Source: Candidatus Heimdallarchaeota archaeon (GTDB lineage: Archaea > Asgardarchaeota > Heimdallarchaeia > Hodarchaeales > Hodarchaeaceae). Taken from it: DNA of 64,000 nucleotides. Positions 7,087-55,881 of the stretch are shown here, piece after piece (positions within the stretch are counted from its first letter, which is position 1; every line of letters starts with the position of its first letter). Location of the stretch: NCBI GenBank assembly GCA_011364965.1, contig RDOB01000002.1, positions 64,001-128,000 of the forward strand. The letters run 5' to 3'. The translations under genes and the position numbers were made by a program. Under the pieces are notes generated by a model, which ran no database searches, was not told the origin of the DNA, and saw nothing but the letters and a program-made list of their open reading frames with translations.

Positions 7087-7887
7087 TTAAGGCTTTTGAA
7101 ATATTAAGCAGTAATGATGATGTATGTTGGGGACGAATGAATAGGGCATTCCATACGGCCGAAGAACTTTTTGGTTCTGTAACCAAATTTTTTCTCCTAA
7201 AAATTTAAATTCACTCCTGAGACGCAAAGCTAATTCAAAAGCCAGTGGAAATAGTTCTCCTTTCTCCCTGACATTCTGGACAAAGATAATAAGATGGCCT
7301 TTATCAACTAAGAGTTCTTTTATTTGGAAAAAGATCTGAACCAATTCGCAAAGGAAATTCTCTCTCTCTGAGATTAATCCAAGATCTTTTGGATTTTTTC
7401 CATATTGAAGGTCTAAACCTTTCTTTTTTCTTGCTTTTTGATTATAGTCTTTGCGTTTTGTTAGGATTCGCCAATAGGGAGGAGAAGTTATACATAGAGA
7501 GAATTTTTCCCCCTTGTGTATTAATTCATAAATAATCTCCCGAGCATCCCCTTGATATATTTCTGCGGACGTACGAGATTTAGCTGTATCCACATATTTT
7601 TCGTATAATTCTATACCCACTCCTTCTCGCTGACATTGATCACATGCTACCATTGTTGAACCAGTTCCCAAAAAAGGATCAATAACTTTCTCACCGGGTT
7701 TAGTAAAAAACTCAATGAATTCCTGAATCATGGCTGGTGGGAATGAAGCAGGGTGTAGTTCAATTTCATGTGAGATTTCACTGGCTTTTCCATCAGCAAT
7801 GAACCATGATTTTGTAAATCGTATCCATTCTTTCCCAGTTAAAGCATTAAGCTTATTTCTTGGGTCAACTTGTGAATTATTCTCCAT
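7087..7887 (-). CDS. DNA amino-methyltransferase (N4-cytosine-type, motif I before SPPY)
   Basis: HPASFP, DPFLGTGST (motif I), GIEL, TSPPYW (motif IV). Confidence 0.88.
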   Translation of the reverse strand: MENNSQVDPRNKLNALTGKEWIRFTKSWFIADGKASEISHEIELHPASFPPAMIQEFIEFFTKPGEKVIDPFLGTGSTMVACDQCQREGVGIELYEKYVDTAKSRTSAEIYQGDAREIIYELIHKGEKFSLCITSPPYWRILTKRKDYNQKARKKKGLDLQYGKNPKDLGLISERENFLCELVQIFFQIKELLVDKGHLIIFVQNVREKGELFPLAFELALRLRSEFKFLGEKIWLQNQKVLRPYGMPYSFVPNIHHHYCLIFQKP

Positions 7888-7960
7888 ATTAAACCATTAA
7901 ATTGGGATTAGAGACTATTTAAAAATATGTTAACTTACAAGTTCAATCCGTTCATAAATT

Positions 7961-8617
7961 TTGAGTGGAGACTCTAAACTTATGGAGCTTGAAAGTATTA
8001 TTTTTGATGTGGATGGAACGATTGTTAATAATTCCAATATAATAATTCGCTTATTTAAGGTGCTTGTTAAACGTTATACAGGTAAAGATATGTCAACACA
8101 GGATGTTGTCTCATTATGGGGTCCTCCAGGAAATGAAATATTCAAACGAGTGTTCCCATCTGAAGTTCTCGGTCAAGCCTGGCAAGAGTTTCTAGTTGAA
8201 TATAGAAAATCTCATCCTACTGCTGGTTACTTCACAGTAGATGATTTCAATATAATGAAATCTAAAGTAAAGTATTTAGCAATATTCACAGGGAAAAGTA
8301 GAGAGACTCTTAAGATTAGTTTAGAGACTCTTGGTTTTAATGATATTTTCGACTATATTATGACTGGAAATGATGTTGAACGCTCAAAACCTTATCCTGA
8401 TGCTCTTTTTCAGATTATCGGCGTTTTAAACTTAAATAAAACCAATACGATTTTTATTGGGGATAGTCCTCTCGATATCATTGCTGGGAAGAGCGCAGGG
8501 ATTAAAACGGCCGCAGCGACTTGGGGAAGTGTTGAGTTAGACAATCTACTTGCAACAAATCCTGATTTTGTCTTTAAGAGTCCTAATGATTTTAAGGAGT
8601 TTATTCTAAACGAATAA
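7961..8617 (+). CDS. HAD-superfamily phosphatase (PpaX/Gph-like)
   Basis: FDVDGT, FTGK, KPYPD, IGDSPLD. Confidence 0.9.
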   Translation: MSGDSKLMELESIIFDVDGTIVNNSNIIIRLFKVLVKRYTGKDMSTQDVVSLWGPPGNEIFKRVFPSEVLGQAWQEFLVEYRKSHPTAGYFTVDDFNIMKSKVKYLAIFTGKSRETLKISLETLGFNDIFDYIMTGNDVERSKPYPDALFQIIGVLNLNKTNTIFIGDSPLDIIAGKSAGIKTAAATWGSVELDNLLATNPDFVFKSPNDFKEFILNE

Positions 8618-8629
8618 AGGAATGATTCG

Positions 8630-10789
8630 ATGCATCTGAGATTGATTGAGAAAAACATTCCTATTAAAGAAATTAGTGAGATCTCAATACCTGAGAGAAG
8701 TAGTTACAAACCAATATATCAGATTTCTAAATGGTTTGCTCGTCGTTCCTCATCAACTTTTAGGGCTTTACTACTCGCAGCTACTTTAGCTCCAGATCAA
8801 AATTTGATGGAGTATTTCTATAAAGAAAATTACATTCCGGAAAAGGTTGTATTAGATCCATTTATGGGTGGAGGGACAACTATTGTTGAAGGTTTGCGAC
8901 TAGGGATGAAGTGTATTGGAATTGATATTAATCCCGTAGCATGGTTTATTACTAAGACTGAAGTTGAGGCCATTTTAGAAGAAGACCTTCAATCTTTAAT
9001 CGCGCATTGTGAAGCAAATATAAAACCAGACATTCAAAAGTGGTACAAAACTCAATGTCCTATATGTGAAAGAGAAGCAGAAATAATCTATATACATTGG
9101 GTAAAACAACTACCTTGCTATATATGCAGTTCAATGGTTACGCTTTTTCGTACTTATATCCTAAATCAAAAAGGTAAATTTGCAACAGTTTTATGTCCCT
9201 CTTGCCATTCGGTTTTTTCATCTCTCCTCGAGTCGGATAGAGTTAGCTGTTCACGTTGTGAATACAGATTTAATCCCAGAATTGGCAACCGCGTGAGTAG
9301 AAGCTCTTACAAATGTTCCAACTGTGGAACAACAAGTCATATATTAAAATCGATTCGAAAATATAATAAAATTCTACCTTCTCAAATGTACGCTATCGAA
9401 GGATATTGTTCTCACTGTGCGAGAGAAAAGGATGTAAAATCCCCTCTTAAAAAGTCTAATTATAAATTCATTAAGCAGATTGACGCTTCAGATGAAGAAT
9501 TATTTTATTCAGCAGAGAAATACTGGGAAAAAACTAAGTCTACTTTACTCTGGCCCAAAAATACCATTCCTGAGGGAACAATAACAAAAACCTTGAAGAA
9601 TCATCATTATAGATTTTGGTTTGATTTATTTAATTCTCGTCAGTTAATTTGTCTTTCGATAATCTTCAATTATATTAAATCTGTAGAAGATGTTTTGAAA
9701 CAAGAATTGTTGTTAGCTGCGTTCATAAATTTACTTAACCATAATAATGTATTTACACGTTATTCTCCTGGAGGTCATAAAGTAGAAGGAATATTTGCAC
9801 GACATGATTTTCACCCTTTATCGACTTTTGCAGAAAACAATGTGTGGGGGAGTAAGTATGGACGAGGAACTTGGATTAAATGCATGAACCGACTTGTTAC
9901 GGGGAAAAGGTATAATTTCCAACCTTATAGCCATAAACGTTTTAATAAAGATGGTTCATTGAGAGTTGAGAAAGTATTTACCGGTAGTATTGATGGACAT
10001 GTCTCCTTAAATCCTCTCAATAATTTTTCCTCCTCCAAGGATTACAATTCTATTCTAATGTGCAGAGATGCAGAAAAAATTAATGATATCCCCCAATTGG
10101 TTGATTTAATAATTACAGATCCTCCCTATGCAGATAATGTCAACTATTCGGAGCTTTCTGATTTCTTTTATGCTTGGTTACGGTTAATTCTAAAAGATCG
10201 GTATCCTTTTTTTTCTAGTAAAGAAACACCAAAGGAAAGCGAAGCTATTAAAGATAAGAATAGGACAATAGATTACTATAAAAAGCTAGTTGGAATTTTT
10301 AGTGCAGTAAAAACTAAATTAAAGCCAGATGGATTAATCATCTTTACATTTCATCATTCTAATCGGCTAGTTTGGCTTCAATTGATAAAATCTCTTTTTG
10401 AAGCGAAAATTTATATTCTCAAAACTTATCCCATTCCTAGTGAAGCGAGAAATGTCTTAAATATTCAAAATAAGAAAGCAATTGCTTTTGATTTAATAAT
10501 TGTTGCGAAATCAAGAGATAAATTTATATCAAAAAAAATAGATCTCATTGATTTTAAAACAAAGTTTATTTCAGAAGGTAAATTCAGGTTTAAAACTCTT
10601 GAAAAAGCAAATATTACAATCAAAGGGTACGATCATCTCGTGGTCATTTATGGGGTACTAATGGAATTGTTATCGGAATACGTCGTACAAGACGAAGTAT
10701 CAACCCCTCTGACGATAGATGAGGTTTGGACTCATACATCAAATCTAATTTTAACTGATTTAATGCAAGATAAAGCTGAGTCAAAATGA
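8630..10789 (+). CDS. DUF1156/COG1743-type adenine DNA methyltransferase with Zn ribbons
   Basis: KWFARR, DPFMGGGTT, GIDINPVA, multiple CxxC pairs (CPIC, CYIC, CPSC, CSRC, CSNC, CSHC), TDPPYADNVNYSELSDFFY, FTFHH. Confidence 0.9.
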   Translation: MHLRLIEKNIPIKEISEISIPERSSYKPIYQISKWFARRSSSTFRALLLAATLAPDQNLMEYFYKENYIPEKVVLDPFMGGGTTIVEGLRLGMKCIGIDINPVAWFITKTEVEAILEEDLQSLIAHCEANIKPDIQKWYKTQCPICEREAEIIYIHWVKQLPCYICSSMVTLFRTYILNQKGKFATVLCPSCHSVFSSLLESDRVSCSRCEYRFNPRIGNRVSRSSYKCSNCGTTSHILKSIRKYNKILPSQMYAIEGYCSHCAREKDVKSPLKKSNYKFIKQIDASDEELFYSAEKYWEKTKSTLLWPKNTIPEGTITKTLKNHHYRFWFDLFNSRQLICLSIIFNYIKSVEDVLKQELLLAAFINLLNHNNVFTRYSPGGHKVEGIFARHDFHPLSTFAENNVWGSKYGRGTWIKCMNRLVTGKRYNFQPYSHKRFNKDGSLRVEKVFTGSIDGHVSLNPLNNFSSSKDYNSILMCRDAEKINDIPQLVDLIITDPPYADNVNYSELSDFFYAWLRLILKDRYPFFSSKETPKESEAIKDKNRTIDYYKKLVGIFSAVKTKLKPDGLIIFTFHHSNRLVWLQLIKSLFEAKIYILKTYPIPSEARNVLNIQNKKAIAFDLIIVAKSRDKFISKKIDLIDFKTKFISEGKFRFKTLEKANITIKGYDHLVVIYGVLMELLSEYVVQDEVSTPLTIDEVWTHTSNLILTDLMQDKAESK

Positions 10790-11550
10790 GTGAAGATTCA
10801 TCATATGAGCTAGTTATTGGGGATGTTATTAAGCAACTTCCATTAAAAGCACAAAAGAGAAAATTTAATTTGTTTATCGCTGATCCGCCCTTTGGTATTT
10901 CTTTTAATAAATCAAGTCACGAATATGGTGCGAAGGAATATAATCTTTATCAGGATGAATTTACACCTGAGGGATATTTTGAGTTCTCTAAGCAATGGAT
11001 TGAGATTTGCTATAATTCATTGGTGAAAAATGGAAGTCTCTATATTATATCAGGATGGACTAATTTACAATATATCCTGAATGCTCTTGCTTTATCAAAA
11101 TTTTACCTGTTAAACCATGCGATATGGTATTTCTCTTGGGGAGTGTACACTAAAAGGAGATTTGCAACAAGTCATTATCATATTTTGTTACTGATAAAAA
11201 ATAAAAAAAATTATCAGTTCTATAAACAGAAGAAATATGATGAAGACGTTTTTTTTTGGCCCGAATATAATCGAGGGAATGACCCACATCGGATTAAGGG
11301 GCATCCATGCCAATTGCCTATCGCGCTATTAGAAAAACTTATCCTTACCTCTAGTTCTCCTGGAGATTTGGTAGGAGACATATTTTCTGGGAGTGGAGGA
11401 ACAATTCTAGCTGCTAGGAAGACAGATAGAGATGTAATTGGATTTGAGATAAGAGAGGATTATAAAGACATAATTTATCAAAAAGCTAAGTTTGGAAAAT
11501 CCCTTTCACAAGAAAACTCCGTTACATTAGAAAGTTATCTCCCTAAATGA
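10786..11550 (+). CDS. Beta-class DNA methyltransferase (N6-A/N4-C)
   Basis: ADPPF (motif IV) precedes HPCQLP and DIFSGSG (motif I), GFEI; ATGA overlap with the upstream MTase. Confidence 0.88.
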   Translation: MSEDSSYELVIGDVIKQLPLKAQKRKFNLFIADPPFGISFNKSSHEYGAKEYNLYQDEFTPEGYFEFSKQWIEICYNSLVKNGSLYIISGWTNLQYILNALALSKFYLLNHAIWYFSWGVYTKRRFATSHYHILLLIKNKKNYQFYKQKKYDEDVFFWPEYNRGNDPHRIKGHPCQLPIALLEKLILTSSSPGDLVGDIFSGSGGTILAARKTDRDVIGFEIREDYKDIIYQKAKFGKSLSQENSVTLESYLPK

Positions 11551-13290
11551 TATTGTATTCTCGATATAGTTGAGATATTCACTACAATGATATAATTGGA
11601 GAATTAGTTGATCTATCTTTTTTATATCATCCTTCTGAACCTCCTCTGACCCATGCATCAATTTAGTTTGCTTTATGATACTTTCATATATAGGATTTTC
11701 TTTCCTTGGTACCAGTACAGGAATTCGTTTTAGATTAAAAATCGAAATTGCATTAGTAAATCGTGATCCTAGATTGAATTGAGTTTCATAAAACCAGCTA
11801 AACAGAGATGAATTGAGAACCGCAAGAAAAAAATATAATAATTCTGGTCTTTGAGAAAACTGTGGTTTTAATCGAAGATTATACACATTTTGAGTAGTCC
11901 ATCTGCTTCTGAAGTCCAAAGCTATGCACGGAACTCGTTTAATTTTTTGCATTACTAATTTTGGGGAATCATAAATTTTTGTGTTCTTTTTTAATTTGAA
12001 TTTCAAATCGGGGATAATATAATGAGTACCAATTATCCTATATGGTTGAATATCATCTCCAGTAAGAATTTCTTGACTATATTCGTGATCTTTTGTTTTT
12101 CTAATTATATATTTGACCATCAAATCCTCTTTATTTAAATTTTGGCTACATTGAGAGCATTCAACAATTTTTTTGCGACTTGAGAGAGGTACCCAGTTTT
12201 TACAGTTGTAACAATACATCAGTCCTCCCTTTTTCGATAATTCCTCCCCTCTATGGATAATGAAGAAATCATTAATACATTTGGTTTCTTTTGTTATCAT
12301 TTCCAAAATTTTTTGAGCTTTTTTGTTATAATTAAAGTTAAAAACATAATCAATATTATTCAGATAGACACTCTGAGGGATTTCTAATTTATCGTTAACA
12401 TGAATCAAGGTATTAAGACGATTAAAGCTTTTATAGAGTCCAATTAATGATATGAATTCCTGAGTTACTCCTTTAAACAATCCATGAAAATTTATTTCCA
12501 GAATTTGGAAATTTTCTAGAATATATTTTCTAAGGTGGGTGTATTGATTCGATCTTGCGATATTTTTAGGTAGGATAAATGCAAGGATCCCCGAATCTTT
12601 TTGTAGTAATTGTGTTGCTTGATATAAAAATAATGAGAAAGTGTTTAGGTTCCTTTTAGGGCTTTTCAATTCAAATTTAGCGTGGAAATAATCCTTTTGA
12701 TCCTTTGATAGCTTTGCACCCCATGGAGGGTTACCCAAAATAATATCAAAGAATTTACTTCCTTCTAAACCCCAGTTTGATACATCAGCTTTAAGGAAAT
12801 CCCCATTAATAATATTTCTCTCTAAAATTTTAGCATAGCTACTATTTATTTGCATTTTATAATTATTTTGAAGATTTTTTCGGCATTGCAGGAGTGAAGC
12901 TTTATCGATTTCCATTCCGTATATATTTTTTAGAACTATATGGGAATTGTTATCTTTACTCAACATCAAAATCTCATTAATCAAATTTTGCAAGTATTTT
13001 AAGTAATTTAATGAATTCCTTAAGAATTCTCCATCCCCTGTTGCTCCATCAAGGATCTTAATCGATTTTAAGAATTTTTGCAGTTGTCTAATTTCATAGG
13101 GAGATTTGCTTGAAATGATGTTTTCCATTGAAGAATATTCTTTATTGCATTGCAGGTTTATTTTTGTCAATAAATAGTAGTCTATTGCAGCTTTTGTAAG
13201 TGGTAGAGATAATTCAGATGGAGTGTAAAAAGCACCGAGCTCTTTGCGTTTCCTAAATTCCTGATTCTTTTTTATATAACCCACGCTCAT
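11527..13290 (-). CDS. Gamma-class N6-adenine DNA methyltransferase (Eco57I/TaqI-like) with target-recognition domain and Zn ribbon
   Basis: GAFYTP, ILDGATGDGEFL, IYGMEID, GNPPW, TaqI-C-like 'FFLAVLNSSLFSWFY...LKRIPV'; CYNC...CSQC insert; no N-terminal REase domain. Confidence 0.85.
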   Translation of the reverse strand: MSVGYIKKNQEFRKRKELGAFYTPSELSLPLTKAAIDYYLLTKINLQCNKEYSSMENIISSKSPYEIRQLQKFLKSIKILDGATGDGEFLRNSLNYLKYLQNLINEILMLSKDNNSHIVLKNIYGMEIDKASLLQCRKNLQNNYKMQINSSYAKILERNIINGDFLKADVSNWGLEGSKFFDIILGNPPWGAKLSKDQKDYFHAKFELKSPKRNLNTFSLFLYQATQLLQKDSGILAFILPKNIARSNQYTHLRKYILENFQILEINFHGLFKGVTQEFISLIGLYKSFNRLNTLIHVNDKLEIPQSVYLNNIDYVFNFNYNKKAQKILEMITKETKCINDFFIIHRGEELSKKGGLMYCYNCKNWVPLSSRKKIVECSQCSQNLNKEDLMVKYIIRKTKDHEYSQEILTGDDIQPYRIIGTHYIIPDLKFKLKKNTKIYDSPKLVMQKIKRVPCIALDFRSRWTTQNVYNLRLKPQFSQRPELLYFFLAVLNSSLFSWFYETQFNLGSRFTNAISIFNLKRIPVLVPRKENPIYESIIKQTKLMHGSEEVQKDDIKKIDQLILQLYHCSEYLNYIENTISFREITF

Positions 13291-16205
13291 TATTTAATTA
13301 GTTGAATCTTGGATTGACATGTTACACATGTTTCATGCTCAAATAGCCATTCCTCAATGTGTCCAAGATGGTACGCTTGCTCACATACAGGACATTTTAG
13401 TATTGTAACATTATCAACAGGTTTTTGACATAAAACACATAATGTATGACTGATTTTATGTGTATATTTTTCATTGATATCACTGTTCGTCATATCTTGG
13501 TATTGAAAATCCACTTCTAACCGGGGAAAAGCAATCTTCTTACTTTCTTCTATAATTTCTTCGCTTTTAATGGGAGATCCTAAGCTAACTAAAATACAAT
13601 TCTCCTTTAAGAAATAATAAAGTTCTTTTAAGATGGGGATTGAACTTTCACTAGGCCCAGTGCCTACGATTATCATTTTTTTCTTTGCTCGTGTTAAAGC
13701 TACGTTCAATCTTCTCTCATCTTCAAGAATATTAGGTGATTCAAAAGTACATAAGGATAGAATGATAACTTCTTTGTCTGATCCCTGAAATCTATCAATA
13801 GTATCGATAACAACATCATAGTTAGCAGTAACACGCCGAATCTCTGCAACCTGTCCTCTAAAAGGAGCTATTATCCCAATTTGTTCCATTTTTAGACCTA
13901 ATCGTTGGAAATTATAAATAAGTCTCTTAATAATCTTTGCTTCATTTTCATTTACTCGCTTATGTCGATCAAACACCGATTCTTGTTGGAGATATACAAG
14001 AGGATGATCTGGGTCAAGTATAATTTTGAAAAGCTGGTCAATTTTCTCAAATATGCCTTCGTTTTGTGGAAGAATATCCCAAATTACTTGCTTTGCTATC
14101 TCCTGAGTAGCTGCTTGCACTTTATTTTCATAGAATTTCTGATTACTAAACTCCATAAGTTGCTCATTCATTCTATATTGATATTGTAGCATTACACATG
14201 CATTAGGATATAATTTCTTAAGTCTTTCAAACAACGAAGTCCCCAAACCCAACTTTTCTGCTTGTGTACTCTGAATTAAGGGTGGTAATTGTTTTTCGTC
14301 CCCTACTAAGATGAATCTATTACCTTTTGTGATTGCAGCGAGAATAGAGGGTTCTGTCATTTGCGAAGCCTCATCCACTATCACTACATCAAAAAGCAAA
14401 TCATCAAAAACACCTCGTCCAATTGTTGTAGTAGTAGCTGCAACTATAGGCAATTGAGTCAGCTTATGATAATCAATGTTTGTATTTTCTAAAGTAAATT
14501 GCTGAACTTTAGAATCGACTACTTGTTCGATTCCTAATCTAACAAGCTCTTTAGTTGTTATGTCATGATCAGAGACTTGTATATATTGTATTATAATATT
14601 ATCAACAGCTGTATTTGTGTATGCAGTCAATAATATCCTTAAACCCTGATTAACGAACGAATCTACAAGTTTGGCAATTGTGTATGTTTTTCCAGTTCCA
14701 GCAGGACCTTGGATCATACAATAATCTTTAGCTCGAAAAGCTAGATTTATTGCTTCTTGCTGACTTTGATCTAAACCCAAAATTCTATTTGGTTTCAATT
14801 CTTGGAATTCTGGGCTTTCACCTTTCACAATTAAATGATGAGTTTTATGATTTGATTTTGTTCCAAAAGTTATTTGAAATAGATTCTTATTCAATCTTCT
14901 TGACATAAATCCCGGAGAATATGAATCCAAAAATGCATTTTGAGGTAATTTATTGGAGCTTTCCAATAATACCGAATTCCGGTTTATAGAAGCAATTATT
15001 GCATAATAATTTTGATCATTCACTGGATCTCCCCTACTTAGAATAACTGGTTCACCAGATCGCAATTCTGAAATGTTCTGACAACTATATTCATATAGAT
15101 TTTGATTTTGATGAATTAGAGAAAGTCCAGAGATAGCTTTTCCTATTTTTTCTCTACCTTTGGGTAAAAATTTCCACAAATAGGCAAATTCTTGACGATT
15201 TTTTTTCAGTTCTTGTTGAATTAAAGCAGAAAAATGAGTAAGATACTGGAATGGGATGTTTCCTTTTTTGGATTGGTAAACTTCAAAGAGGAATTGACAT
15301 TTTTCTTGAAAAAAACATTTTTCACATTTTGAAGGATTTCTTTCTTTTTCTGAGGGAAAATAACCCTCGAATTGAATTAAATAACTAAAATTGCGCGCCA
15401 TATGGATTTTCTGTAATAAATCATAATTCATCTCTGTTGGTCGAAATGCTGGAACTCCTTCACCTGAATATATTATGTATGTTTGATTTACCGCTTTGGA
15501 TGTGATACTTAGTCCCTGCATATAAATAATTGCCTGAACTAGATCAGTATACCAAGTATTCAGTTCTTTCGGAGGTATTTTTTGTCCAGTTTTTAATTCA
15601 AATAACTTTTTTGGGACTAAAAAATCAATTCTCCCTAATAGTCCATAAAGGGGGGAAATGAATGTTGTTTCCGTTTGGACTTCCCCCTCCATTAAAGTGG
15701 GAGCTGAATGTGCTAATCCGTTGAGAACTGATTTTAATTCAGGTATCAATTCTTCCATATTAGCATTTAAATAAGACAATGGGAGAAAAAACTTATTTAA
15801 TGCAACTTCAAGAGCGTTGGAAACTGATTTATCTTGAGAAACGATCAAAGAGAGTGCTTCATGCAAGATAGATCCTCTTATCATAGGAAGAGTCGGTTTC
15901 TGTTCTCCTATTACATTTTCTGTAAAAGCTCGATAAACACATGAAGCTGCACTTGTAATTGCGTGAGCATTAACCAAAAAATCTGGGTTGAGTATGATTA
16001 GTGTATCAGGGGTGCAATCATACTGATATTCTCCTAAGTAATAAGCTTCCACAATTCTAAGGGGAGTCAGATATGTAACTTTTGAGAATGGAAAGTATTT
16101 CCATGGATTATGGAGTTCAAGTTCAATCGTTTCATTCTTTTGAGGGACACAGAGTGAAATTCTGTTCCCTTTTCGTTCTAGAAATAATCCATCAATACTA
16201 TTCAT
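13290..16205 (-). CDS. dna2: Dna2-like Fe-S nuclease / SF1B helicase with C-terminal RING finger
   Basis: LILNPDFLVN, SCVYR + CEKCFFQEKC (Fe-S ligands), GRIDF...FELKTG (RecB-type nuclease), QGPAGTGKT, TAYTNTAVDN, VDEASQ, VGDEKQLPP, QYRMN, TIDRFQGSDKE, RLNVALTRAK; C-terminal CxxC-x11-CPxC-x4-HxxH-x3-W-x6-CxxC. Confidence 0.9.
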   Translation of the reverse strand: MNSIDGLFLERKGNRISLCVPQKNETIELELHNPWKYFPFSKVTYLTPLRIVEAYYLGEYQYDCTPDTLIILNPDFLVNAHAITSAASCVYRAFTENVIGEQKPTLPMIRGSILHEALSLIVSQDKSVSNALEVALNKFFLPLSYLNANMEELIPELKSVLNGLAHSAPTLMEGEVQTETTFISPLYGLLGRIDFLVPKKLFELKTGQKIPPKELNTWYTDLVQAIIYMQGLSITSKAVNQTYIIYSGEGVPAFRPTEMNYDLLQKIHMARNFSYLIQFEGYFPSEKERNPSKCEKCFFQEKCQFLFEVYQSKKGNIPFQYLTHFSALIQQELKKNRQEFAYLWKFLPKGREKIGKAISGLSLIHQNQNLYEYSCQNISELRSGEPVILSRGDPVNDQNYYAIIASINRNSVLLESSNKLPQNAFLDSYSPGFMSRRLNKNLFQITFGTKSNHKTHHLIVKGESPEFQELKPNRILGLDQSQQEAINLAFRAKDYCMIQGPAGTGKTYTIAKLVDSFVNQGLRILLTAYTNTAVDNIIIQYIQVSDHDITTKELVRLGIEQVVDSKVQQFTLENTNIDYHKLTQLPIVAATTTTIGRGVFDDLLFDVVIVDEASQMTEPSILAAITKGNRFILVGDEKQLPPLIQSTQAEKLGLGTSLFERLKKLYPNACVMLQYQYRMNEQLMEFSNQKFYENKVQAATQEIAKQVIWDILPQNEGIFEKIDQLFKIILDPDHPLVYLQQESVFDRHKRVNENEAKIIKRLIYNFQRLGLKMEQIGIIAPFRGQVAEIRRVTANYDVVIDTIDRFQGSDKEVIILSLCTFESPNILEDERRLNVALTRAKKKMIIVGTGPSESSIPILKELYYFLKENCILVSLGSPIKSEEIIEESKKIAFPRLEVDFQYQDMTNSDINEKYTHKISHTLCVLCQKPVDNVTILKCPVCEQAYHLGHIEEWLFEHETCVTCQSKIQLIK

Positions 16206-54900: not shown

Positions 54901-55881
54901 AAAGATGCATTGACCTCCTCACTAGCCTATTATACGCGTCTTCCTCCTGAATATGTTATCCCTTTGGCGTTAAATGGAGTCACATCTGTAGCTCGTCTGA
55001 TTAGAACAGAATACTCTCAAATTGAGAATCCTATAAATATCACAAATGAAAAATATAGTGCAGCAAGAGAAACAGTCAATCTAATTGATATAATTACCCA
55101 TAAGAAAAGTGATTCTGAATTTAGAGTTCGGTTATCATCTCTTAAAGCCTTTACTTCAAAACAGCTTGAACAGATTCAGAAACTTGGCTATGATAATGTG
55201 ATAGACCTTTATTTCATGCTTGATACCGAACAGGTACCTAAGTCTTTAGTAGGGTCAATCGAATCAACAAAAACAGTTTTAGAAAAACCCCTAGCTCTAC
55301 TTCCCTCGGTTCAAGAGGCATTTCCTCAAAAGATACCTCTTCTTCACAATGCTGGAATAACCTCGATAATTGAATTCTTATTCTGGCCAAAAGACGAATT
55401 GGCTGAGCTTCTTGAAATAAAACGATATGAATTGTCGCGCTATAGAAAAATCGACATTGGAGCTCTTAGGAGAAAGAGAAACTTGGGAACACCAATAGAA
55501 AACTTCCCAAGAATTCCAGAAGAGCTTATTGAGACTTTTAAACAGATAGGAGTAGATAATATAGAAGATTTATATTTTCTTTTTACAAAATATCCTAATT
55601 TAATACCAGATGATGTTATCCCAAGAAAAATCATAACTACATGTATCAATGACCTCGAGAGCCCCGTTGTTAAATTACATGGACTACCCATACCAGTGGC
55701 ACAAGAATTAGTAAAAAAAGGGATCACTAGAATCATTGATTTCTTATATTGGCCTATGGACGACCTAAAACCTGTTTATGGTTTATCAGAGGCGAAAATT
55801 AAAAAAATAAAGGACTCAATTAGATTGAGGGAGAAATCTGACGTTGTTGGTAGACTAGACTCTTACATGAGGCAGGATTGA
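48937..55881 (+). CDS. top6B: DNA topoisomerase VI subunit B with ~1750-aa C-terminal HhH-repeat extension
   Basis: FFQDN..IAGF, RELVENGLDA, DNGSG, FGRVLTGS, QSRGRFGLG, H2TH FQGIGKKTA, transducer RYANRIPLLF and KIPFPETSKEYIA; repeats follow from about residue 570. Confidence 0.93.
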   Translation: MMTDAVKSSKKGKITKEKVVKRSAADFFQDNKAIAGFDNTMRVVFTSVRELVENGLDAAERIGKLPELIITISRLKKEEIAKLLNVSSFDSSEKLDFIRLTVRDNGSGVQSEFVPPLFGRVLTGSNYGARQSRGRFGLGAKMVLLNAMSSVDLPLIVKSKHMNEDFTSYHEIMINLAENEPIILLKREIPQETPEAIPESGTEVSVTFTGSWNLASRWIREYFSQLSLITPYARILVTYPDSESPEEMPRVVEDMPGYPQIAKVHPWGTDITQFKREIAVTKSPTVEEFLQDHFQGIGKKTAQEFLEYVKIDNTKSPHDLSASDIRRIVHEGFVMPDSDPKKRRDQKYFPFKRPSGDSLSPLSAELLAKGIQKELDPQFVRSATGDISAYSGHPFIVEAALAYGGPILSKEEGSKSGTPRIYRYANRIPLLFGAGNDIITKCVQKMNWRNYKININKAPIAIVVSVVSSKIPFPETSKEYIADVDELRKEIYKVLKKLARGLGTHLGKAERERREKQRQSRFESAAPKVIDNLSKILETTDTPFLLKSPEEIAKLEKALASAETKLIRRKYPPSPAISSIGEWLPMTTYATLVENGIQTIYQFLRAPNVELMSITGLSEKRVAEIKRLTVTSQNRATQSPSLREFEIFDKRLENDFNKYLEAPRIHRALTKRWLVSALDLFATPITQLRMVESLAEKLIYESKIQMINTLIAESTIPEIEFDTLPWMTNDLQKSLKSAKIHTLFEYLASFPEKLADLPYLNEILIEKIKQEIREGIKQGYIDGEKVIGAATFEWMDYRVTPRLRGRKVSKIIEFLETSNEKLSELSELTENLINKSKDEIKPHLARFNDENSLNTLPGINETMKADFMRVEVIGFIDYLSKPNSELVFVRGLVDNLIIQKQDEIMDQVSQQHELFPIKHAWWLDRELENKLKSIGINSVFDFVRYPTQQLAEIKNLDYQTLETIKNTYGTPIPLINDQDKVKLDNQQIICLEELEFIDDFSKIKPEELSKKLKDLMIYIQAPICYLPIPSKFYQILHHLGVSQIFDFLIWPDHDLHHKGGLPYKLIEEIKSEISLDMIQDLIKSKSVLVSAISNNLDSKLLDKIPADFTLQELYYRLPYADDRLANLQLSKTEIETLIDIFLTPISRIPSIKPKFINKLRNISINTFIDLITWEREVIAKIIGRDEKYIQSIFENFEQFTSGKPLFNLGVFNQTEIKALISQGFKTVEDLYFRANHETFGTMGVKWKKIERYQRILETPVAMLQTRSEQGKISHDALERLADNGIDQIIKLVYWPENELQSILKIPEKRIIELKDSIAIKEHGMPLTKVCGYNKKTLNTLLSYGIETIEDLYFSASEDMVDEDDDIEWDYVKQAIEALDIPISFLDGIIATKYIEKLQGKKIDTIIRFLITSEEELSEILGTPIDNVENLRQKINLIRFRESTETSISILEGLTRKQLRVLSEENISSIYDFIIANDESLASILEMDLEQVSSMKNNLNYDSIRIIKEEKMVPLVKISLFDKRIVKQLARMGIESLADLYYVATPKTFEESSISWQMIQDARAILDLPIEIIPEITKKEINTLKKAKIKIIFDLLMESPEELFKRTNIDAETIESLQNSIIIDELITILKRLSVDKFNFPKEYFAEIKKNKLDSAYDLISYENEDLFLSQEGKKKVRIDKNSWVDVSSILSIPLRLFMNFENEIMKGLKRKRIINLRDAYAASEEKFDGLFEDGGLDFLETLRVLDFKEIRDFLRISICFTPHISPEWLFSLINNSIYTIEDILSCELRDLTKILNSSLPRTRNFIKEISMNSTLKCLEEELIPLDKLSSIFSSEIITKLESIGYNSLQDFIIRITDATDIDGVSDVLKILNSPVNRLSDDIPLSEIRKLSQQGISTIRDWLIVQNSVISDIIDIEKDIIYELKRSFDFKSISEVSDVETSLNDYIEKGYIDFDELNKLGIRTIEDLQFIEIDTLSASEEFLSRIRSLKDALTSSLAYYTRLPPEYVIPLALNGVTSVARLIRTEYSQIENPINITNEKYSAARETVNLIDIITHKKSDSEFRVRLSSLKAFTSKQLEQIQKLGYDNVIDLYFMLDTEQVPKSLVGSIESTKTVLEKPLALLPSVQEAFPQKIPLLHNAGITSIIEFLFWPKDELAELLEIKRYELSRYRKIDIGALRRKRNLGTPIENFPRIPEELIETFKQIGVDNIEDLYFLFTKYPNLIPDDVIPRKIITTCINDLESPVVKLHGLPIPVAQELVKKGITRIIDFLYWPMDDLKPVYGLSEAKIKKIKDSIRLREKSDVVGRLDSYMRQD
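50650..55850 (+). repeat. About 28 degenerate tandem HhH/RadA-N-like protein modules in Top6B
   Basis: Recurring 'P[IL]..[LI].......L...GI.[TS][IV].[DE][FL]L' units, e.g. LVENGIQTIYQFL, LKSIGINSVFDFV, LLSYGIETIEDLYF, LHNAGITSIIEFL, LVKKGITRIIDFL; counted by eye. Confidence 0.8.

Follow-up and report, generated by a model that had tools for sequence, protein, structure and literature searches.

A Dna2 nuclease-helicase with a C-terminal RING-type finger in Heimdallarchaeia: a candidate DNA-targeted ubiquitin ligase

Can a core DNA-processing enzyme of an archaeon carry its own ubiquitin ligase? In eukaryotes, ubiquitin controls the repair of replication forks through ligases that are separate proteins, whereas a single open reading frame (ORF) of a Candidatus Heimdallarchaeota archaeon (Hodarchaeales; assembly GCA_011364965.1) joins a Dna2 nuclease-helicase to a ligase-type domain, a RING finger. 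The ORF, here called Dna2-RING, lies at positions 13290-16205 on the minus strand of the window, i.e. the 64,000-nucleotide stretch of contig RDOB01000002.1 (positions 64,001 to 128,000; G+C ~33%) that was analysed. The initial annotation of this stretch had proposed that the enzyme has built-in ubiquitin ligase (E3) activity, that it is coupled to the DNA methylase encoded next to it, and that it belongs to a ubiquitin-linked network of DNA metabolism. Heimdallarchaeia-type archaea are widely considered to be among the closest relatives of eukaryotes. The questions addressed here are whether the enzyme is a true Dna2, what kind of finger it carries and how old the fusion is, whether the finger could serve as a ligase, and what the methylase has to do with it.

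The Dna2 core and its C-terminal finger

The protein is divided as follows, in coordinates of the window and residues of the protein.

13290..16205, minus strand: whole Dna2-RING gene, 971 amino acids plus stop (ORF call; full-length AlphaFold2 model)
15276..16205, minus strand: N-terminal Dna2/Cas4-like PD-(D/E)xK nuclease, residues 1-310 (Pfam Dna2 and Cas4 models; alignment with the mouse DNA2 nuclease)
15939..15941, minus strand: Cys89, first iron-sulfur (Fe-S) ligand; invariant, aligned with the Cys in SIRCLRRA of mouse DNA2
15591..15626, minus strand: nuclease active site D194...E203-L-K205; D194, E203, L204 and K205 invariant
15297..15326, minus strand: remaining three Fe-S ligands, C294-x2-C297-x5-C303; invariant
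14796..15275, minus strand: stalk helix and beta-barrel between nuclease and helicase, residues 311-470 (helix 317-345 and strands 357-428 in the model; inside the mouse Dna2 alignment)
13578..14795, minus strand: superfamily 1B (SF1B) helicase of the Upf1/Dna2 type, residues 471-876, with Walker A at 14685-14708 (Pfam AAA_11/AAA_12; mouse DNA2 residues 620-1045, E 2.3e-64; motifs invariant)
13461..13577, minus strand: linker, residues 877-915 (predicted local distance difference test score, pLDDT, <50 at 877-890 and 901-903 of the full-length model; sequence variable among homologues)
13293..13460, minus strand: C-terminal RING-H2-variant finger, residues 916-971 (invariant ligands, profile against the PDB, model, kinship to a RING of a ubiquitin operon)

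Sequence comparison and modelling firmly assign the 971-residue protein as a true Dna2 nuclease-helicase, because the Pfam models, the motifs, the invariance of the residues within them and the first rank of mouse DNA2 by both sequence and fold all agree. Pfam recognises Dna2 at residues 23-166 (E 5.5e-13), AAA_11 (E 1e-39) and AAA_12 (E 2.5e-43), and residues 183-304 match Cas4 models. The nuclease is bracketed by the four Cys ligands of the Fe-S cluster (C89, C294, C297 and C303), its active-site residues are followed by Q224-x3-Y228, and the helicase contains the Walker A sequence GPAGTGKT (500-507) and VIVDE (608-612). None of the catalytic and Fe-S ligand residues varies among 32 aligned full-length homologues (28-55% identity), which bears out the statement of the initial annotation that the ORF has every hallmark of Dna2. 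A sequence search of solved structures ranks mouse DNA2 first (2.3e-64), with IGHMBP2 and Upf1 behind it. The full-length AlphaFold2 model (pLDDT 88.5, predicted template-modelling score, pTM, 0.89) likewise finds mouse Dna2 5EAN as its best fold match (E 6e-55, template-modelling (TM) score 0.72, ~1049 alignment columns), while its other fold matches cover the helicase only, with TM <= 0.51. The ORF is the sole match to the Dna2 family (PF08696) in the genome (2.97 Mb, 87% complete). Enzymes of this class trim long flaps and resect DNA ends in eukaryotes; flap nuclease and 5'-3' helicase activity are predicted for the archaeal protein.

Beyond the linker, the tail reads C923-V-L-C926, x11, C938-P-V-C941, x4, H946, x2, H949, x3, W953, x6, C960-V-T-C963, with exactly the spacing first noted for it (CVLC-x11-CPVC-x4-H-x2-H-x3-W-x6-CVTC). 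The finger is not a chance motif, since its eight zinc ligands (C923, C926, C938, C941, H946, H949, C960 and C963) are invariant in 42 aligned tails that share 21-59% identity, and since 59 of the 61 closest homologues (this protein included) in a collection of 5.8 billion proteins have it, the other two being fragments. The ligands form a Cys4-His2-Cys2 set, i.e. a variant of RING-H2 in which ligand 4 is a Cys, two positions away from its usual place, and ligand 6 a His. In the HMMER alignment to Arkadia, a Gln stands at the position of the canonical ligand-4 His, and the second zinc site is completed by an invariant Cys that precedes ligand 3 by three residues.

Searched as a single sequence, the tail is ambiguous between PHD and RING, with every Pfam match below its cut-off. 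The zf-RING_2 model is matched over its full length with 18.7 bits against a cut-off of 27.3 bits (2e-3), and PHDvar_NSD scores slightly better (5e-4, over half of the model only), followed by C1_1 (4e-3) and PHD (7e-3), which are partial as well. Together with the PHD-like spacing of the first half (C-x2-C-x11-C-x2-C-x4-H), these matches would suit a PHD- or C1-type reader finger for a modified protein or lipid, with no ubiquitin-conjugating enzyme (E2) involved. The ambiguity is settled by the family profile and the fold search. Run against the PDB, the profile of the tails matches RING-H2 ligase domains from end to end, with Arkadia at 2.2e-10 and gp78, HRD1, RNF38, RNF165, RNF126 and RLIM at 1e-9 to 1e-7, whereas PHD fingers reach only ~2e-3, some seven orders of magnitude worse. 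With the AlphaFold2-modelled tail (pLDDT 83) as query, all 50 Foldseek matches listed from the PDB are RING or U-box entries (TM 0.6-0.76), and no entry titled PHD finger is among them; given a domain of only 57 residues, the E-values of these matches are weak (>= 9e-3). Moreover, ligand 6 is an invariant His where the PHD set (Cys4-His-Cys3) has a Cys, and the Pfam PHD matches span only positions 1-25 of the 47 in the profile. By profile and model, then, the tail is a RING-H2-type finger, not PHD or C1, as initially annotated, and a reader finger is extremely improbable.

Age of the fusion and the ubiquitin genes around it

Where their sources give a name, the 61 closest homologues are almost all labelled Hodarchaeales, Hodarchaeota, Heimdallarchaeota or similar. 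The more distant Dna2-like proteins of Halobacteria and some bacteria share the nuclease-helicase core (~30% identity over ~82% of the query), but none of the 59 listed has the C-terminal finger. Among the families of Heimdallarchaeia, full-length matches that include the tail were found in 10 of 21 genomes of the clade studied here (f1), in the single genome of f3, in all 31 of f4, and also in f6. In this last family, nine of 12 genomes have a match, and the alignment reaches residues 968-970 in four of them and ends near residue 860 in the rest. A complete Dna2 was not found in the ~180 genomes outside the class within the sample of 261 Asgard genomes, five of which gave helicase-only matches. 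Within the Asgard genomes searched, complete Dna2 is thus confined to Heimdallarchaeia, and every complete gene whose alignment extends to the C-terminus has the RING. The fusion is old and has been kept across four families of Heimdallarchaeia. A full-text literature search, with subscription-only papers outside its scope, found no paper on a fusion of Dna2 and RING.

The surroundings of the gene differ outside Hodarchaeales. In f4, Dna2-RING is preceded by a small ferredoxin gene and a TrmB-like gene and followed by a solute-binding-protein-like gene. The gene immediately upstream encodes a two-cluster [4Fe-4S] ferredoxin of 58 amino acids, 76-84% identical between loci, at 16 of the 19 non-Hodarchaeales loci (L039-L057), and at 14 of these the TrmB-like gene accompanies it. 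A gene resembling the large subunit of RFC, which stands beside the copy of Heimdallarchaeum aukensis, was considered as a conserved partner and rejected, since it is not conserved and the other loci have the convergent solute-binding-protein-like gene instead.

A finger of the ligase type calls attention to the ubiquitin genes of the host. The genome contains four matches to UQ_con (E2), four to the ubiquitin family and five to ThiF/ubiquitin-activating enzyme (E1), which form three clusters (contigs 16, 1 and 13); the initial annotation had stated that Asgard archaea have such systems, and this genome has one. A profile built from the Dna2 tails only identifies six RINGs of the Cys4-His2-Cys2 class in the genome, i.e. 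the Dna2 tail and five others. One of them, a protein of 121 amino acids (contig 16:76269-76631) that is matched at 1.6e-12, is encoded inside a cluster of E2, RING, ubiquitin and E1 genes, the E1 lying at contig 16:78960-79679, and a 367-residue protein with a RING of the same class adjoins the ubiquitin cluster of contig 1. Searched against 1.84 billion representative proteins, this profile retrieves 13,275 at E <= 1e-3; the best 148 of these comprise 99 with the variant signature and 38 with the canonical RING-H2 signature. Because the profile matches both the 121-residue operon RING and this large representative set, sequence places the Dna2 tail in a large class to which the RINGs of archaeal ubiquitin operons also belong.

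Some of the proteins matched by the profile have several RINGs, one of 745 amino acids having eight matched stretches. Outside the window, at contig 9:498917-502072 on the minus strand (locus L077), a 1052-residue protein ends in a zinc ribbon and a RING of the Cys4-His2-Cys2 class and otherwise has no Pfam match. The E2 of the contig 16 cluster (locus L006:1441-1911) has H-V-N where the family consensus is H-P-N; in our reading of its sequence it retains the YPF and SPA residues, which are the RING contacts in UbcH5-type E2s.

The case for a built-in ubiquitin ligase

Whether such a finger could act on ubiquitin depends on how it would meet an E2. Two positions at which RINGs contact the E2 are present here, namely the hydrophobic residue two after ligand 1 (L925) and the helix Trp (W953). 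They were compared in 35 Hodarchaeales-type tails, this protein included, and 24 tails of other Heimdallarchaeia. The hydrophobic residue is kept in all 35 and all 24, and the Trp in 35/35 and 22/24, respectively. The small RING protein of Caldiarchaeum subterraneum has I30 and W58 at the positions that, in our mapping, correspond to L925 and W953; it is an E3 in vitro, and I30, W58 and the linchpin R69 are important for its activity (Hennell James et al., PMC5654768). An extra Cys, "C3B", was described for the same protein and represents the same kind of ligand deviation as in the Dna2 tail (PMC5654768).

Several observations weigh against ligase activity. After ligand 7, the Hodarchaeales-type tails have Val, Ala or Thr (V961 here) where 23 of the 24 other Heimdallarchaeia tails have Pro, and the linchpin after ligand 8 is Gln in 34 of 35 (Q964 here) in place of the Lys or Arg found in 21 of the 24. 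The linchpin mutation R69A impaired the Caldiarchaeum cascade (PMC5654768). Further points are the Pfam scores of the single sequence given above, with zf-RING_2 below its cut-off and slightly behind PHDvar_NSD, and the gain or loss of Dna2-RING at least four times among close relatives, so that its role must be dispensable in them. Finally, non-catalytic RINGs exist in eukaryotic complexes, and the RING folds of GATOR2 are described as structural.

These points could be accommodated if the tail had a RING fold but no ligase role, and served as a zinc-stabilised module for interaction, dimerisation or regulation, for example by docking on a partner in the replisome or in repair, or on the helicase body. 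The changes from Lys or Arg to Gln and from Pro to Val or Ala across a whole subgroup, the sub-threshold Pfam RING score, the dispensability of the entire gene in close relatives and the presence of GATOR2 RINGs among the fold matches of the tail are all in line with such a module. Yet the L925-type hydrophobic residue and Trp953 are retained in every tail of the subgroup with the replaced linchpin, the sister subgroup retains both the Pro and the Lys/Arg, and the same class of RING is encoded inside a ubiquitin operon. Furthermore, a Gln linchpin still supports the activity of RNF38: R454Q leaves E2 binding unchanged and binds ubiquitin-charged E2 about as well as R454K does, and the activity assay used time points of 10 min for R454Q, 5 min for R454K and 2 min for the wild type (PMC12326332). 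We consider such a role without ligase activity rather doubtful.

By analogy, the Gln linchpin is compatible with a weaker or tuned ligase; activation of the ubiquitin-charged E2 may be weaker in this subgroup or tuned to a particular E2, and confidence is lowered for the Hodarchaeales-type proteins. E3 ligase activity of the finger is a reasonable prediction from its sequence and model, with this specific caveat. A complex prediction with the contig 16 E2, two zinc ions and the RING tail gave a score of 0.13 against a mark of 0.32; this amounts to no verdict and was used in neither direction.

The reading that we prefer, with a probability of roughly 0.55, is that the single Dna2 of this genome carries a tethered RING of the archaeal variant type that acts as a built-in, DNA-structure-targeted E3. 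In this mechanism the Fe-S PD-(D/E)xK nuclease, coupled to the 5'-3' SF1B helicase, would thread the end of a single strand of DNA, while the RING, tethered to the Dna2 body by the low-confidence linker of ~40 residues, would dock a ubiquitin-charged E2. The targets of tagging would be Dna2 itself or the proteins beside it on the flap or DNA end.

More tentatively, and rather doubtfully as a whole, the proposal may be extended to Heimdallarchaeia Dna2 in general as a DNA-structure-targeted ubiquitin ligase, whose RING would recruit a charged E2 on a flap or resected end and tag the enzyme or neighbouring replication and repair proteins. Such an enzyme would be an archaeal forerunner of Rad18/Rad5-type signalling at forks and breaks, and eukaryotic Dna2 may descend from a RING-bearing ancestor and have lost the finger since. 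Dna2-RING hints at ubiquitin tagging at sites of DNA replication or repair before eukaryotes. The full sets of E1, E2 and ubiquitin genes in the host genomes make this a small and tractable system, with one protein, four E2s and few ubiquitins, and the natural contrast of Gln and Lys linchpins between sister groups provides a built-in comparison.

The neighbouring methylase and related systems

Downstream of Dna2-RING lies the last gene of a block of four methylases (7087-13290), after which the gene order continues with Dna2-RING, YdjM and AlaX.

7087-7887, minus strand: beta methylase
7961-8617, plus strand: HAD hydrolase
8630-10789, plus strand: DUF1156-like methylase, 719 amino acids
10786-11550, plus strand: beta methylase
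11527..13290, minus strand: gamma-class N6-adenine DNA methyltransferase, 587 amino acids (Pfam Eco57I, TaqI_C, N6_Mtase)

As initially annotated, the stop codon of Dna2-RING overlaps the start of the gamma methylase: the TAA shares its last A with the ATG at 13290 (...AAA TAATG AGC..., a 1-nt overlap). The two genes are adjacent in 10 of the 11 genomes of the clade that have Dna2-RING; in the remaining one (G065, contig 31, locus L060), ~14 kb separate them. Because of the adjacency and the overlap, the two genes are probably co-transcribed. The order of the block recurs in most of the sister genomes whose locus was inspected, with 41-80% protein identity, and no restriction endonuclease was seen within it.

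The functional coupling that the initial annotation had seen in this arrangement is not supported. An orthologue of the gamma methylase is present in 20 of the 21 sister genomes, as compared to 10 of 21 for Dna2-RING, with protein query and Pfam model in agreement. Eight genomes without Dna2-RING, one of them a single-contig assembly, have the block contiguous and intact, with a gap of only 170-4000 bp between methylase and YdjM, and tblastn found no convincing Dna2 remnant in these eight loci apart from one match of 22 residues. This match (G058, locus L062, 11644-11709) lies in a 4-kb methylase-YdjM gap, corresponds to Dna2 residues 683-704 with 59% identity (E 0.001), and may be a relic of a lost Dna2 gene. 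In the maximum-likelihood tree of the methylase, genomes with and without Dna2-RING are interspersed, so that the well-supported branches alone call for four changes or more, and the full tree for seven. Conversely, the methylase occurs in 0 of 62 genomes of the other Heimdallarchaeia families (E <= 1e-40), even though Dna2-RING is in all 31 of f4. Because each gene is thus found without the other, neither depends on the other, and the methylase is a neighbour rather than an obligate partner, in a block that looks lineage-specific and vertically inherited.

The same data bear on a restriction-modification-like or defence module, in which unmethylated DNA would be the target of the nuclease-helicase and the host genome would be shielded by the methylase. 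Such a module would explain why the genes share a strand and overlap, and why the nuclease is lost repeatedly while the methylase stays, as happens with restriction genes; the helicase part also resembles the defence helicases MkoA and DpdJ. It is at odds with the occurrence of Dna2-RING apart from this methylase in every other family, throughout f4 for instance, and with the conserved housekeeping synteny of the block with YdjM and AlaX. The defence models of PADLOC and NCBIfam match the generic helicase part only, far below their cut-offs, and the best structural match is the replicative Dna2. The restriction-like reading of the methylase, tempting as it is, is very probably wrong and can be put aside.

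Two known defence systems were also considered as identities for Dna2-RING and rejected. For Prometheus (ProA) and Hhe, the searches with Pfam, PADLOC and NCBIfam gave 85 bits against 1500 and 66 against 2000, in the helicase part only, and no DUF4011, DUF3320 or PLD domain; for Mokosh MkoA, only the generic helicase part matches, again far below the cut-off. These systems share with Dna2-RING a Dna2/Upf1-type SF1B helicase, and Prometheus also has a Dna2-type nuclease (PMC13700489).

Within the window, the wider network that the initial annotation had drawn between Dna2-RING and a ubiquitin-like domain on Top6A (55878-57296, plus strand) is not supported; the ~188 residues before TP6A_N give no Pfam match at E <= 0.05.

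Among other known systems, motors acting on nucleic acids that carry a RING or RING-like module include Rad5, HLTF and SHPRH as well as Upf1 with its CH domain. Rad5 and HLTF ubiquitylate PCNA at stalled forks, but they are superfamily 2 enzymes whose RING lies within the motor. Upf1 belongs to the same SF1B helicase family as Dna2, but its module differs in type and sits at the N-terminus. To our knowledge, none of Rad5, HLTF, SHPRH and Upf1 has a nuclease. The finger itself is closest to the small RING proteins (srfp) of operonic archaeal ubiquitylation, i.e. that of Caldiarchaeum subterraneum and the 121-residue RING of this genome, which are likewise RING-H2 variants that have an additional Cys close to ligands 3 and 4, keep a hydrophobic residue two positions past ligand 1 and share the conserved Trp. 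These proteins are stand-alone and have a Lys/Arg linchpin, whereas the Dna2 tail is fused to a DNA enzyme and has Gln. In the remainder of the protein, the Fe-S PD-(D/E)xK nuclease, the stalk and barrel, and the SF1B helicase follow each other in the identical order in eukaryotic Dna2 (mouse DNA2, PDB 5EAN/5EAW/5EAX). We know of no eukaryotic Dna2 with a RING; the archaeal protein, which is ~90 residues shorter than the mouse chain in the crystal, has in addition a linker and a RING at its C-terminus.

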